From Alphaproteobacteria bacterium (GTDB lineage Bacteria; Pseudomonadota; Alphaproteobacteria; Rs-D84): a DNA stretch of 64,000 nt. How positions within the stretch are numbered: position 1 is the first letter of the stretch; each line of letters begins with the position of its first letter. Under the pieces are notes generated by a model, which was not told where the DNA came from, made no database searches, and was given only the letters and a program-made list of their open reading frames with translations. Shown piece after piece: positions 3,793-59,002 of this stretch. The position numbers and the translations under genes are program-made. The stretch is taken from positions 71,905 to 135,904 of the forward strand of contig SUUN01000002.1 in the NCBI GenBank assembly GCA_015062495.1. Direction: 5' to 3'.

Positions 3793-3805
3793 CGCGCTAT
3801 ACGCA
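3793..3805 (+). repeat. 13-mer CGCGCTATACGCA, site 1 of 6 (plus orientation), 4 nt after the pgsA stop
   Basis: Exact 13-mer. Extended context is TAAAAACGCGCTATACGCACTAAATCCGGC. Confidence 0.6.
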
Positions 3806-11861: not shown

Positions 11862-11928
11862 AAAAATTCCTTTTTTGGAATCTTAGACCAAAATCAAATT
11901 CTGTCAAATAAAAAACATCGAACTTATT

Positions 11929-12076
11929 GAAAATAAATTAGAATGATTCAGATAAAAAAATACAATTTATAAAAATAAAAGATAATGGTGTAGATATGGG
12001 ATGGGGGCGACATCGTAGTGTACAAACGCTACATGAGATGTCACCCCCGCCCATAGATATGCCATTAGATTTTATT
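11929..12076. repeat. structured intergenic repeat, copy A (conserved-core hairpin family)
   Basis: Composition: GAAAATAAATTAGAATG ... AAAAGATAATGGTGTAGATATGG, then a ~52-nt hairpin (12002-12053) with core GTAGTGTACAAACGCTACATGAG, then CATAGATATGCCATTAGATTTTATT. Abuts the stop codon of the secretin gene. Homologous to 57984-58170. Confidence 0.7.
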
Positions 12077-13705
12077 TTAGTTCAGCGGCGCGCCCCAGTG
12101 CTGCTGAATACTACGCTCTGCATCCATCGGGCTAACCAGAACCTGCGGCGTCAGGATAACAACCAACACTTCACGACTGGCCGATGTTTCACGCGAACCA
12201 GACAGCGCCATAAAGTCCGGATCACCCAGGCCATAACGCGTATCTGAACCTTTTTGTTTTTCAAATCCCGACACCACCAACATTTGACCTGATTCCATGA
12301 TAACTTCTTGCATGAAACTGCGCTCTTCAACCTCGGGCAATTGCAATGTCACTTCACCAATTGTCTGGGTTGACATACGCAATAGTTCACGCACCGACAT
12401 ACGGAACAGCAACAAAATCTTGCCATTTTCCAAAACATTCGGCAACAGTTGCATTGTGAATCCTGTTTCCAAATCGTCCTGATCAACCGTACTGGATTCA
12501 ACCGTTGTAAAATTACGCGATTCAAAACGCTTGATATAGCCGGTTGTACGTGTATTGCTGACCGGGGCAACACGGTTCGAACGCGTTGTCACACCAACGT
12601 TTGTAACCAACGATACCTTGCCCTGCTTTGCCAATGCTTCAATCAACGCATTGCTGCCCGCCGCACCTGACAGTGAACCATTCATAATCTGATCTTGGGT
12701 ATACGCCCCCTCTACAAGTGACGATCCCTCCATATGCGTTGCACCCGTCAATGCCGATACAGTATTAGACAACACAGCGATATTCATAGAACTGGCCTCG
12801 GTCGATGCCAAATTGTTCTTTGGATTTGCGACAATATTCAATCCAGATGTTGAATTAATCGCCGCCGCCAAATTCAAACCAAACGCAGAATCGTTTGAAA
12901 TCGTAACTTGCAAAACCTTAACATCAATTGTAATCAATTGACTCAAACGCTTGTTCTGACGTTCAATATATTCACCAACACGCGCCAAAATCGATGGCGA
13001 CGCGGTAACTGTAATTGTCCCTAAACTGCGCGACACTGTAAAGTCTGCATTATCTGCCTTGCCAATAATGGATTCGATTGCATTTTCAACTTCGTCCCAT
13101 TCTTTTAAAGTAGATTCCAGCGACACTTCATTTGAATTATCGGTCGACACAGATGTTTGATATGCAACCTCAGTCCCCAGGGCATACAAGGTAAATGTTT
13201 TTGTTTCTGTTTCATAAAAGACGATTGAATTTTTATCATAATACCACAACAAATCCAAATCTGTTGCGACCTGACTTAACAATCCGGACAATTTACCAGT
13301 ATATGCCACATTAACCAATTTCTTTAATTTATCAGACGATACCTGGCCATCAATTTTAACTGGGATACCAGTAATTGAATAAATATCATTAGCCAGCACC
13401 TGTAACGACACAGGTTCATTTAACAAGATAGTCACCCCCGTATCCGTTTCAAACTTAGACGGCAGGTTATTGCGATGTTCCAACACCATGGACTTGTTTC
13501 CCAACCAAACCCCTTCGGACATAGAAACTGTATCACCACTGGCAACCTTGGCGCGTGGATTTTTCGCCATTTCAAACGCATCATATGCGTTAATAAAATC
13601 CTGATCCACAGATGCTGCAACCTTGGCCGATTCGCGTTTTGCACATCCCGTTGCCGTCGCCAACACAACACTGCACAGAATTAAAAATTTTAATGACTTT
13701 CTCAT
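12077..13705 (-). CDS. secretin-family outer-membrane lipoprotein (type IVb pilus / T2SS-type secretin)
   Basis: 542 aa. Lipoprotein signal (LATATGC). C-terminal secretin signature GLGDPDFMALSG...EVLVVILTPQVL, analogous to the IPxLG...ELLVFITP motif. Confidence 0.7.
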   Translation of the reverse strand: MRKSLKFLILCSVVLATATGCAKRESAKVAASVDQDFINAYDAFEMAKNPRAKVASGDTVSMSEGVWLGNKSMVLEHRNNLPSKFETDTGVTILLNEPVSLQVLANDIYSITGIPVKIDGQVSSDKLKKLVNVAYTGKLSGLLSQVATDLDLLWYYDKNSIVFYETETKTFTLYALGTEVAYQTSVSTDNSNEVSLESTLKEWDEVENAIESIIGKADNADFTVSRSLGTITVTASPSILARVGEYIERQNKRLSQLITIDVKVLQVTISNDSAFGLNLAAAINSTSGLNIVANPKNNLASTEASSMNIAVLSNTVSALTGATHMEGSSLVEGAYTQDQIMNGSLSGAAGSNALIEALAKQGKVSLVTNVGVTTRSNRVAPVSNTRTTGYIKRFESRNFTTVESSTVDQDDLETGFTMQLLPNVLENGKILLLFRMSVRELLRMSTQTIGEVTLQLPEVEERSFMQEVIMESGQMLVVSGFEKQKGSDTRYGLGDPDFMALSGSRETSASREVLVVILTPQVLVSPMDAERSIQQHWGAPLN

Positions 13706-21738: not shown

Positions 21739-21948
21739 ACCATCTTCTTGGGCAATAAAAAAACGACCACAACGGTCGCTAGAAAGGAGATGGTGGCGAG
21801 CCGACGGGAATCGAACCGCCGACCACAGGAGTTTTAAGGTGAATTGTTCTAATACCATCTTCTTGGGCAATAAAAAAACGACCATTTCGGTCGCAATAAG
21901 AAAGGAGATGGTGGCTAGGGACGGAATCGAACCGCCGACACAGGGATT
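21739..21948. repeat. tandem partial duplication (~115-bp period, ~85% identity) covering the tRNA-Phe 3' half and its terminator
   Basis: Copy 1 (21739-21830) is ACCATCTTCTTGGGCAATAAAAAAACGACCACAACGGTCGCTAGAAAGGAGATGGTGGCGAGCCGACGGGAATCGAACCGCCGACCACAGGA. Copy 2 (21854-21948) is the same with 'TTTC' / 'AATAAG' / 'TAGGGACGGAATCGAACCGCCGACACAGGGA' substitutions. Copy 2 continues into the intact tRNA. Confidence 0.75.
21791..21840 (-). pseudogene. degenerate tRNA 3'-half fragment (pseudo-tRNA-Phe)
   Basis: Has ...GGCGGTTCGATTCCCGTCGGCTCGCCACCA (T-arm and acceptor 3' strand with CCA). The anticodon arm is decayed and there is no 5' half. Confidence 0.55.
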
Positions 21949-21984
21949 TTCAGTCCCTTGCTCTACCAACTGAGCTACCTAGCC
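21909..21984 (-). tRNA. tRNA-Phe (GAA)
   Basis: Reverse strand reads GGCTAGGTAGCTCAGTTGGTAGAGCAAGGGACTGAAAATCCCTGTGTCGGCGGTTCGATTCCGTCCCTAGCCACCA. Cloverleaf with anticodon loop CTGAAAA and encoded CCA. Located antisense between gatA and gatB. Confidence 0.9.
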
Positions 21985-22039
21985 AACGCGAGGACAATAA
22001 TAAGATACGAAAAATAAAAAAGCAAGGGAAAAAGATAAA

Positions 22040-42006: not shown

Positions 42007-42136
42007 TTTTGCTTCTATTTACTGGATTGTCCCACTACACTTGCGATGGCAACAAAAAGAGGCTTAAAATTTCTAGAACCTTAAAAACTCTTGTCATTGC
42101 GAGCAAACGCCAGTTTGCGTGGCAATCCAGTCTTAT
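42007..42136. repeat. direct repeat, copy 1 (~130 bp), containing a palindromic SLRxNxSLRGNPV-coding REP-like unit
   Basis: TTTTGCTTCTATTTACTGGATTG ... TTCTAGAACCTTAAAAACTCTTGTCATTGCGAGCAAACGCCAGTTTGCGTGGCAATCCAGTCTTAT. Lies just 3' of the GIY-YIG gene. Inner hairpin is GCAAAC-GCCA-GTTTGC. Confidence 0.75.
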
Positions 42137-42146
42137 GCATTCCGAC

Positions 42147-42455
42147 CTACCTGACCCAAAACATATCTTGTAAACTTAAATCTATCCAATCTGGATTTAT
42201 ACTTTCAATCAAACTTAATTTATATTTTCTTGACTGCGACTTGATATGCTTTTCACGTTCAATAGCATCATTTACATATTGAAACTCTTCCCAATATCCC
42301 AACTTATCACAACCATATCGTGCCGAAAAAGAATCTGGATTTATCTTATTTTTGTGTTCCCAAACACGTCTTGTAACATCATCCGTCATACCAGTGTACA
42401 ACGTACCATTTCTGCGATTAAACATAATATAAACATAGAATTTATATTCTTTCAT
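42147..42455 (-). CDS. GIY-YIG nuclease-superfamily small protein (UPF0213-like)
   Basis: About 102 aa from MKEYKFYVYIMFNRRNGTLYTGMTDDVTRRVWEHK (GIY...YIG-type motif with R and E). The track start at 42515 would run into the upstream repeat. Confidence 0.7.
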   Translation of the reverse strand: MKEYKFYVYIMFNRRNGTLYTGMTDDVTRRVWEHKNKINPDSFSARYGCDKLGYWEEFQYVNDAIEREKHIKSQSRKYKLSLIESINPDWIDLSLQDMFWVR

Positions 42456-42587
42456 TTTGCTTCTATTTACTGGATTGCCGCGGTCGTTAACACTCCCTCG
42501 CAATGACAAAGACACTTAATATTCTAGAACCCTAAAAACTCTTGTCATTGCGAGCAAACGCCAGTTTGTGTGGCAATCCAGTCTTAT
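42455..42587. repeat. direct repeat, copy 2 (~130 bp), immediately 5' of the GIY-YIG start
   Basis: TTTTGCTTCTATTTACTGGATTG ... TCTAGAACCCTAAAAACTCTTGTCATTGCGAGCAAACGCCAGTTTGTGTGGCAATCCAGTCTTAT. About 90% identical to copy 1 in the conserved blocks. Confidence 0.75.
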
Positions 42588-57901: not shown

Positions 57902-57983
57902 ACCATTATAAAATTAACACAAAACACATTATTGTCAAATAAATTAAAATACAAAATCCAACGCCCCTTGCTTGGTAAAAAAT

Positions 57984-58170
57984 AAAAGATAATGGTATAG
58001 ATATGGACAGTACCGTCCCCGCAGTGTACAAACGCTACATAAGGGGACGGCACCGTTCATAGATATGCCATTAGATTTTATTGAAAATAAATTAGAATGT
58101 GCCAGATGCACGTAGTGGGTGTGGCGTAGTGTACAAGTCGCTACATGAGCCACACCCACCGCGTGCAGAT
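57984..58170. repeat. structured intergenic repeat, copies B and C (two tandem conserved-core hairpins)
   Basis: AAAAGATAATGGTATAGATATGG, then hairpin B (58010-58054; core GCAGTGTACAAACGCTACATAAG, stem CCGTCCCC/GGGGACGG), then CATAGATATGCCATTAGATTTTATT, then GAAAATAAATTAGAATG, then hairpin C (58111-58165; core GTAGTGTACAAGTCGCTACATGAG, stem GTGGGTGTGGC/GCCACACCCAC). Abuts the stop of the OMP gene at 58197. Confidence 0.7.
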
Positions 58171-58196
58171 GGACCGTTATAATTTATTTATATTTT

Positions 58197-58934
58197 TTAG
58201 AATAAGATATTTATCTTGAATCCTACCTGTGCATCATCTGACTCAAACTCATAGTCAACATGCCCCACATACTGTGTACGGCCATACTGACGCACCAATT
58301 TCATATGTAACCATTCCTGGTCATAGTCTTTACCGGTTTGAATATCTTTGTGCGTTGCCTTGCGAATGGTCAGACCTGCCCCAATTCGCCAGTCGGGCGC
58401 AATACGGAAATATGATTCTGGTGTAAAATCTAATAATGCCATACCACGTTCATCATCAAACACCCACGTTGACTTAACGGTTGCGGCCAATGTCATACCC
58501 GCCCATTGACGTCCCATACGCAAACCAACATAATATGTTGAATCCGCATAGTCCGGGGTACGGACGCGATGACTGCCCCCGAATTTAAATCCAAACAAAA
58601 CATCTGATATTATATGCGAATCATTATCATCGGCATTACCCATACGATAAACACCACCTAAATCGATGGCGGCAAATCCATCTTCGGGCCCATTAAAGTC
58701 ATGCTGATAACGAACATTTGCGCCAATTGCCAATCGATTATTCATCCCATACGACAACGATTGGCCAACACCCAAAATATGATCCCAGTATGAAATCGAT
58801 GATGTTGATAAAATTTCTTCTATACCCTGTAAAAACAGCGGATCAGACGTATCAGTTGCCAAATCATTCGCACGCGCGAACGACGGTGTGGCCATTATAC
58901 CCAACAAACCCAAAATCGATAAAAATTTACGCAT
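58197..58934 (-). CDS. outer-membrane beta-barrel protein
   Basis: Signal peptide MRKFLSILGLLGIMATPSFA. C-terminal ...GFKINILF. About 245 aa. Confidence 0.55.
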   Translation of the reverse strand: MRKFLSILGLLGIMATPSFARANDLATDTSDPLFLQGIEEILSTSSISYWDHILGVGQSLSYGMNNRLAIGANVRYQHDFNGPEDGFAAIDLGGVYRMGNADDNDSHIISDVLFGFKFGGSHRVRTPDYADSTYYVGLRMGRQWAGMTLAATVKSTWVFDDERGMALLDFTPESYFRIAPDWRIGAGLTIRKATHKDIQTGKDYDQEWLHMKLVRQYGRTQYVGHVDYEFESDDAQVGFKINILF

Positions 58935-59002
58935 AAACTCTCTCCCTGTACCCAATATAAACTTTGCCCCCAGATACCCGGGGGCATATTAATTTAATAA
59001 CC

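Follow-up and report, generated by a model that had tools for sequence, protein, structure and literature searches.

A clade-specific family of long hairpin repeats flush with the TAA stop codons of leading-strand genes in uncultured gut Alphaproteobacteria

Two loci in the window (the whole 64-kb stretch of DNA that was analysed) carry between them three hairpins built around a shared core, and at both loci the hairpins lie directly behind the stop codon of a minus-strand gene. The question that they raise is what kind of element this is, what placed it at stop codons, and whether it acts as DNA or as RNA. The hairpins belong to an undescribed, clade-specific repeat family of uncultured gut Alphaproteobacteria.

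Exactly three matches to the core, AGTGTACAA(N1-2)CGCTACAT, occur in the window (+ strand in each case, at 12017, 58023 and 58128), compared with an expectation of zero from the shuffled window, and the first-pass annotation was thus right in its starting point of three hairpins with a conserved core at two loci. No further real copy was found in the window at up to three core mismatches, and a covariance model (CM) search of the window returned no copy beyond A, B and C (Table 1). A core of 24 nt had been described; this length holds for C, which has a 1-nt insertion, but the core of A and B is 23 nt and the consensus quoted for it was one base out of register. The "shared flanks" in which the hairpins had been said to be embedded are in fact part of the hairpin itself, as its outer arms. 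Each of A, B and C folds as one long hairpin (-50 to -59 kcal/mol, z = -9 to -12 versus shuffles) with a span of 102-107 nt in the window copies, the short part being the apical stem P3 only (5-6 bp), and the element is therefore about 107 nt long, not 45-55 nt. The stem pairs of all three copies are complementary, with a single C.A mismatch in A.

Table 1. Positions in the window of the hairpin elements, their parts and the stop codons beside them
Feature	Position	Strand	Details
Element A, whole hairpin P1-AGAT-P2-apex-P2-AGAT-P1	11972..12078	+	MFE -59.3 kcal/mol, z = -12; CM 115 bits
Conserved apex of A, GTAGTGTACAAACGCTACATGAG	12015..12037	+	P3 GTGTA/TACAT plus C-G pair, loop AAAC
Inner AGAT of A, 5' arm	11992..11995	+	3'-arm partner 12055-12058; invariant columns in alignment A1
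Second AGAT pair of A	11980-11983 and 12067-12070	+	direct repeats, not inverted
Solo type-2 left arm, TTATTGAAAATAAATTAGAATGATTCAGAT	11924..11953	+	90% identical to 58078-58107 (left arm of C); repeat family D11
Element B	57981..58082	+	fold -49.9 kcal/mol, z = -8.9; CM 112 bits
Element C	58085..58189	+	fold -57.4 kcal/mol, z = -10.6; in seed alignment A1
Optional tail motif, CCAAGCAAGGGGCGTT on the gene-sense strand	57960..57975	-	just past distal array end
TAA stop of secretin gene (12077-13705)	12077..12079	-	overlaps last paired bases of element A
TAA stop of 252-aa ORF 58197-58955	58197..58199	-	7 nt from hairpin of C

The + strand of element A is the strand with the GTGTACAAAC core and is antisense to the abutted gene; in its apex a GTA/GA internal loop flanks P3. 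Element B combines the outer-arm type of A with another middle stem and is the distal partner of a tandem pair, of which C, with type-2 outer arms and a loop 1 nt longer, is the proximal partner beside the stop codon. The GAAAATAAATTAGAATG at 11929 belongs to the solo left arm next to A, which is what remains of a decayed fourth, tandem copy. Location directly after the stops of minus-strand genes had also been noted before and is correct; Pfam confirms the secretin, while the label "OMP" given to the other gene has no Pfam match to rest on. This 252-aa ORF has orthologues in at least five other genomes with the element at the same place. Pfam searches of all 57 long ORFs of the window recognized housekeeping genes only, and no Y1-HUH, RAYT, transposase or integrase protein. 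Between element A and the next minus-strand gene there is a promoter-like TTGACA-16-TAAGAT (11907-11880, minus strand), an indication that this gene is served by a promoter of its own.

The anatomy of the element was worked out from an alignment of 29 copies (A1, the seed) and later from one of 78 copies. The whole element is an imperfect palindrome of ~107 nt (rounded, ~110 bases). Its A/T-rich outer stem, P1, whose arms pair along ~20 nt, comes in at least two sequence types, AAAAGATAATGGTATAGAT.../...ATAGATATGCCATTAGATTTT (type 1) and AAATAAATTAGAATGATTTAGAT.../...TAGATGAATTATTATAATTTATTT (type 2). Inside it, an AGAT tetranucleotide is invariant on both arms (the left copy reads AGAT in 77/81) as a direct rather than inverted repeat; the facing AGATs form tandem G.A/A.G in the + strand hairpin and U.C/C.U in that of the other strand. 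An origin of the AGAT pair as the duplication left by a nested insertion is unsupported, as no empty outer arms were found in 548 kb of loci. The middle stem, P2, is a variable GC-rich helix of ~19 bp, for which, considered as a guide, no matching targets exist in the window. At the apex, a 3x2 internal loop (GNA/RA) leads to P3 (GTGTA/TACAT plus a C-G pair, with a 1-nt bulge) and a 4-nt loop. An alternative apical fold, GTAGTGT/ACGCTAC with a 4-nt bulge, is broken by natural core variants that keep GTGTA/TACAT. The invariance of the core is overstated, since loci were fetched by exact core match and only ~23 copies came from the model alone. The core variants of the latter, which include AGAAGTTACAT, CATAACGCTACAT and CGATACAC, keep P3.

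Covariation of the stems across the family is strong, and the compensatory changes first noticed among the three window copies, whose quoted pairs are indeed complementary, turn out to be general. Standard pairs fill 94.2% of cells and two-sided changes occur in 36 of 41 pairs among 78 distinct copies; the covariation score is 0.584, compared with 0.08-0.10 when partners are slid, and 0 of 500 shuffles reach the observed values, although the 78-copy alignment was fitted to the model and these figures lean towards structure. A separate MAFFT/RNAalifold run gave two-sided changes in 29 of the 41 pairs. Compensatory changes can also be seen in place, at the orthologous site after rpsM, where related species have AGCG/CGCT, AACG/CGTT and AATG/CATT.

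A total of 83 non-redundant placements were recovered from dozens of species of gut Alphaproteobacteria and from metagenomes (the copies are related by descent, so that counts here and below are of non-independent events), and local segmental duplication, which had been offered as the finding that would deflate the family, does not account for it. The first genome scan used a 15-base pattern, and about two-thirds of its 120 loci were chance matches in coding DNA, from which the real ones were told by their flanks; it gave 41 real instances in 34 loci, all in uncultured gut Alphaproteobacteria. A metagenome scan with a longer pattern contributed 38 more loci, and the covariance model then added copies with divergent cores. 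The hosts are Ca. Enterousia, RGIG MAGs from ruminants, and human and other gut MAGs. Density is ~1 copy per 10-20 kb, with three copies in the 64-kb window and at least four on one 58-kb contig. Viral contigs, plasmids and phages contained no match to the element. Comparison with Rfam (gathering and E-value modes) found two tRNAs only in the window and miRNA noise far below threshold in the loci, i.e., no family match to the element in either. A literature search for the core sequence found no paper, and the Enterousia papers make no mention of repeats.

The position of the element relative to genes is exact. The right end abuts the stop codon of an opposite-strand ORF in 71 of 78 evaluable copies (ORFs of at least 80 aa; offsets -17 to +3), and the mirror case, a same-strand ORF ending at the left end, is seen in 18/79. 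In the sense of the abutted gene the junction reads xxx-TAA-AATAAATTATAAT... or xxx-TAA-AATAAAATCTAATGG..., and the stop is TAA in 68/71, compared with 208/264 (79%) of the remaining long ORFs of these loci (p = 4e-4). The secretin site provides a useful empty site: the orthologue in locus L018 lacks the element and ends on the stop codon shared by the genes in the window and in L083, where one to four copies follow, and the element therefore begins exactly at the native TAA stop. Genes downstream of the secretin gene have no homology between the window and L018, so that this empty site defines the proximal junction only. TAA stands at both junctions of window A and of its near-identical relative in L092, inseparable there from the A/T-rich ends, and in such A/T-rich termini neither a target-site duplication nor clean ends can be defined.

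The abutted genes represent 27 families, of which 16 were seen in at least two species, and those confirmed by Pfam are YebC, ribosomal proteins S13 and S11, EF-P, a TrxB-like reductase, DnaN, SecB and DnaA. Slots after rpsM, rpsK, efp, yebC, dnaA, dnaN, secB and others are kept between species. Being flush with the stop codon, the element is necessarily part of the transcript of the abutted gene and must form a long 3' or intercistronic RNA hairpin there, and this gene-sense hairpin probably affects processing or stability of the transcript. At L047 the S11 gene is flanked by copies on both sides, which places copies inside the conserved rpsM-rpsK cluster and means that they cannot terminate sense transcription efficiently. 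A terminator scan left the elements uncalled on either strand at both window loci. A plain terminator family, one of the candidates proposed at the outset, is not supported, on these two grounds. Ordinary bidirectional terminator-like hairpins, AAAATCCCCC-N4-GGGGGATTTTTT (repeat family D1), are present at 3801, 4084, 7512, 11397, 27968, 28575 and 40955, and the genome does not, then, depend on the long elements for termination.

It is important to emphasize the relation of the element to replication, for which the strand was inferred from local skew, the MAG contigs being short. The strand with the GTGTACAAAC form is C-rich in 50/52 loci (mean skew -0.16), and in the window GC skew is -0.2 overall on the + strand. 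Skew in the window is exceptionally strong, reaching -0.3 to -0.6 at third codon positions in genes of both orientations, and ~65% of the coding sequence lies on the G-rich strand. The negative third-position skew of the + strand, common to both gene orientations, shows that it is strand-wide and replicational rather than linked to coding. The abutted genes are on the G-rich (leading) strand in 54/54 cases, compared with 60% of genes in the same loci (p about 1e-12), and in 56/57 when skew is taken from third codon positions of opposite-orientation genes only. With respect to genes both orientations of the element are seen (71 antisense-flush, 18 also sense-flush in convergent pairs), whereas with respect to replication there is one only. 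The abutted genes are core housekeeping genes that are themselves enriched on the leading strand, and part of the polarity could be indirect. The TAA flush with the gene end, the restriction to leading-strand genes, the single orientation, and the better fold of the antisense strand are all features beyond those of the first-pass annotation, whose interpretation of the hairpins is on balance partly supported.

The two strands of the element differ in their folds. The + strand has the better fold in 76 of 80 copies, by 10.6 kcal/mol on average (-51.6 versus -41.0), with about half of the advantage in the outer (basal) stem. The asymmetry has two sources, the tandem G.A motifs and a handful of outer-stem positions with G.U pairs; these positions alternate between U-A, U.G and C-G with hardly any C.A, states that define subfamilies rather than separate events. 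Counts of G.U versus A.C are 109 versus 22 in the outer stem; in the variable stem there is no strand asymmetry (G.T 50 versus A.C 53), although its mismatches are purine-purine in 55 cases and pyrimidine-pyrimidine in 14. Since the variable stem has no G.T excess, the call of the folded strand is weaker than the energies suggest, and the position of the better-folding strand, antisense to the abutted gene and on the leading-strand template, is in our view real though only moderately supported.

The family is also dynamic. Copies that are 90-98% identical have unrelated flanks, as in window A versus L092 (96%, between species) and L083 versus L103 (98%, within one genome), and one middle stem is found with either outer-arm type. 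Across orthologous sites the conservation of the element is 0.70-0.82, compared with 0.47-0.69 for third codon positions, and in one orthologous pair the element is 100% identical where third positions are 71%. At some sites the occupants differ even where third positions of the gene are 82% identical, and two copies from one site resemble each other hardly more than two from different sites (0.75 versus 0.72), which argues that sites are inherited and occupants exchanged. Tandem arrays are common and head-to-tail, the C and B pair of the window among them. Distal members of arrays are often hybrids, with non-matching arms joined in the invariant core; others lack a variable part of the gene-proximal half. 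About one-fifth of arrays end with GCAAGGGG(T)TGGG, in the window as the tail motif of Table 1, and 13 of the 63 occurrences of [GT][CGT][AT]AGGGG lie within 45 nt of a distal end, a zone that makes up ~0.3% of the sequence searched. Synteny breaks fall at distal array ends (window versus L025, L115 and L018). A separate recurrent ~35-nt sequence, CTAATCACGAACAATGTTTTTTGTTCGGG, which is a small hairpin in its own right (CGAACAA/TTGTTCG), lies just distal to full elements in L029, L054, L134, L137, L151 and L154, and at six loci at least it stands in for the gene-proximal half of a second tandem element.

Our preferred reading of these features, held tentatively and with confidence a little short of even, is that the elements are non-autonomous hairpin repeats of REP/REPIN- and MITE-like kind, specific to this clade, which are placed by a strand-specific, replication-coupled reaction and have spread to unrelated sites. 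The reaction would be single-strand-specific and coupled to the replication fork, and would insert the element right behind TAA in the G-rich strand, the lagging-strand template, by analogy with the logic of Y1-HUH enzymes (TnpA of IS200/IS605 and, as is thought, RAYT). An enzyme of this kind would recognize the hairpin with its conserved irregularities and apex, and gene conversion between copies after placement would shuffle the modules. Placement on one strand at the fork would explain the flush TAA, the TAA enrichment, the absence of elements after lagging-strand genes and the single replication orientation. Against a reaction like that of IS608, the better hairpin is on the C-rich strand, opposite to the strand that such a reaction would use; to this it can be countered that the asymmetry rests on a few fixed features, namely the tandem G.A and the subfamily-level G.T. 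The asymmetry of the folding strands is nevertheless left unexplained by this model. A tblastn search with an approximate IS200 TnpA query had no match in the 548 kb of loci, which cover only a few percent of each genome. A protein that recognizes the conserved apex is plausible.

A rather unlikely alternative is that the element is selected by the host as part of the mRNA, where a 3' UTR or intercistronic hairpin would stabilize or process the transcript (as an exonuclease barrier or RNase III site), the apex would bind an RNA-binding protein, and spread would be by gene conversion only. Co-transcription with the upstream gene, which the position flush with the stop makes necessary, the retention across species of sites after housekeeping genes, conservation above that of third codon positions, and the strong covariation are what such an element should display. 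It offers no reason, however, why genes on the lagging strand go without the element, or why, with the whole 3' UTR available, the element should lie right at the TAA. Of the two strands the gene-sense RNA folds less well, with U.C/C.U and C.A where the other has G.A and G.U, and near-identical copies at unrelated sites need a copying process.

Placement and function could also be combined, in what we consider a distinctly unlikely proposal. The hairpins would be a domesticated, replication-polar single-strand system that is inserted at TAA in a fork-coupled manner, with apex and G.A loops read by a clade-specific protein, and that serves as a one-way barrier to head-on, antisense transcription of leading-strand genes or as a recombination point at synteny breaks, with read-through in the sense direction. 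The barrier alone is improbable. It supposes that the + strand hairpin, with its U-rich 3' arm, stops transcription that runs against replication and antisense into genes of the leading strand, and that the mismatched sense hairpin lets transcription read through, in keeping with the fixed orientation versus replication, the ~10 kcal/mol greater stability of the + strand (about half of it in the basal stem, by the U-rich tract), the copies inside an operon that imply sense read-through, and the 18 convergent lagging-strand genes that end at the left end. It leaves unaccounted for, however, the flush position and enrichment of TAA, as well as the dispersal of copies and the hybrids; termination needs neither an invariant apex nor AGAT motifs, and the consensus terminator scan calls no element on either strand.

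Quite improbable, in our estimate, is a classical cut-and-paste MITE, whose P1 arms would be read by a DDE transposase for insertion into TA or TAA with target-site duplication, any orientation bias being due to selection. In its favour are outer arms that form inverted repeats, TAA at either junction of window A and L092, an empty site (L018), and copies in tandem or nested neighbourhoods. Symmetric ends, however, give no cause for a replication polarity of 56/57. The outer arms are of several covarying types and the invariant parts (AGAT and apex) are internal; no autonomous relative and no empty outer arm were found in the loci; and a duplication could not be told from the A/T-rich termini.

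It is very improbable that the complementarity of the stems is a by-product of homogenization of the arms at the DNA level, by template switching between inverted repeats, and not of selection on a folded molecule. Such template switching is documented (PMC8604942, PMC3820800), and the equal G.T and A.C counts of the variable stem are as it would have them, but homogenization would not spare the AGATs in direct repeat, the asymmetry of the apex or the fixed G.T/G.A, and these are the most conserved parts of the element. Least probable is an independent small-RNA gene or cis-antisense RNA read from the + strand, since the better fold of that strand, tandem G.A motifs typical of structured RNAs, and -10-like hexamers (TAGAAT, GATAAT) in the left arm are set against a promoter scan that calls no + strand promoter-like site at either window locus, a covarying outer stem that lies upstream of any start from an internal -10, an upstream flank that is not conserved, copies antisense inside ribosomal-protein clusters, and the lack of an Rfam match. 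A dedicated small-RNA gene, with no conserved promoter and with an outer stem that would need to be transcribed but starts at variable flanking DNA, is not supported; of the three candidates of the first-pass annotation, the REP/BIME-like hairpin comes closest.

The element resembles REP, BIME and REPIN sequences, which have RAYT (TnpA_REP) enzymes of the Y1-HUH type. These are high-copy extragenic palindromes, mostly 3' of ORFs and between unidirectional or convergent genes, with complementary stem changes in families, arrays, and long vertical persistence at orthologous sites, and their single-strand logic would explain the polarity. REPs are found mainly downstream of ORFs, with complementary stem changes (PMC3733652), and are defined by a GTAG/GTGG tetranucleotide 0-2 nt 5' of the hairpin foot (PMC3333891, PMC6006769). 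In the element, GTAG is found at the foot of the apical stem in 57/81 (GCAG, GGAG or GAAG in the rest), but no such tag is at the foot of the long hairpin. Unlike REPs, which are 20-40 nt, the element is 107 nt; it is conserved in the apex rather than the stem; its arrays are head-to-tail rather than inverted pairs; and it is flush with TAA, with near-absolute replication polarity (56/57). No RAYT gene was found in the window or in the 548 kb of loci. In size and array geometry, and perhaps in tag position, the family departs from REP proper, and we regard it as a new relative of the REP/MITE kind.

The ends of IS200/IS605 elements and of PATEs, their miniature derivatives, would share with the element insertion behind a short A/T-rich target (perhaps duplication-free here too), one active strand, an orientation bias that results from coupling to the lagging-strand template, and imperfect hairpins with conserved irregularities; theirs, however, are two separate subterminal hairpins rather than one long one, and the better-folding strand of our element is on the other template. 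Like a MITE, the element has terminal inverted repeats (the P1 arms) and presence/absence polymorphism at the orthologous secretin site; no autonomous IS with its ends was found in the loci or in viral, plasmid and phage collections. ERIC/IRU and Correia (CREE/NEMIS) sequences resemble it as imperfect palindromes of ~100-150 nt in transcribed intergenic regions that fold as RNA hairpins and are kept at orthologous sites, but they occur in both orientations, are conserved in overall sequence and are not flush with stop codons, and we know of no replication polarity for them.

The attC sites of integrons are also imperfect palindromes directly 3' of ORFs in fixed orientation, with structure kept while sequence varies, and here too it is the ORF-antisense strand that folds best. 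In chromosomal arrays the best-folding strand of attC is on the leading-strand template. The element lacks the RYYYAAC/GTTRRRY boxes (few copies match one attC box, by chance) and carries instead ATCT(AAT) on its arms, direct and not inverted. It is conserved apically where attC is conserved basally; its neighbours are housekeeping genes (dnaA, dnaN, rpsM, rpsK, efp and secB) in conserved synteny; and neither integrase nor attI was found by the element, nor an integrase in the Pfam scan of the window. Rolling-circle origins and the hairpins of CRESS-type Rep proteins have in common with it a conserved loop, a compensated variable stem and short direct repeats beside it, but they occur once per replicon beside the Rep gene, in contrast to dispersed chromosomal copies. 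An intrinsic terminator, with a GC-rich stem followed by a U tract at the ends of operons, differs from an element that the scan does not call and that lies within rpsM-rpsK.

Interspersed hairpin repeats (REP, ERIC, Correia) are common, and their placement and role are largely unsettled. The family described here has a clean signature (fixed replication polarity, exact TAA position, invariant single-strand features, and modular covarying stems) that narrows the mechanisms to strand-specific, fork-coupled ones and makes them testable. In practical terms, the element splits conserved operons such as rpsM-rpsK and will mislead both gene callers and programs that predict terminators; it also provides a ready-made marker of an uncultured gut clade.

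Other repeats were also noted in the window. Direct repeats of 66 nt, 97% identical, at 42071-42136 and 42522-42587 flank a 122-aa minus-strand ORF (42147-42515) whose sole Pfam match is a GIY-YIG nuclease domain; the stretch from 42071 to 42587 resembles a small nuclease gene cassette and is possibly mobile. A tandem duplication with a period of ~115 nt, at 21739-21985 beside a tRNA gene (21912-21984), consists of a 46-nt repeat (21739 and 21854) and a partial copy of the tRNA gene (GGAATCGAACC...) at 21807-21834, and may be a scar left by an element formerly inserted at this tRNA. Another short repeat, ACGCGCTATACGCA(C/T), is present in about seven copies, with starts at ~3793, 18345, 19442, 23013, 39654, 45634 and 63224 (repeat families D2, D3 and D17); most copies follow closely on a gene, often with a terminator-like hairpin coming next, and the repeat might be a promoter or protein-binding motif.
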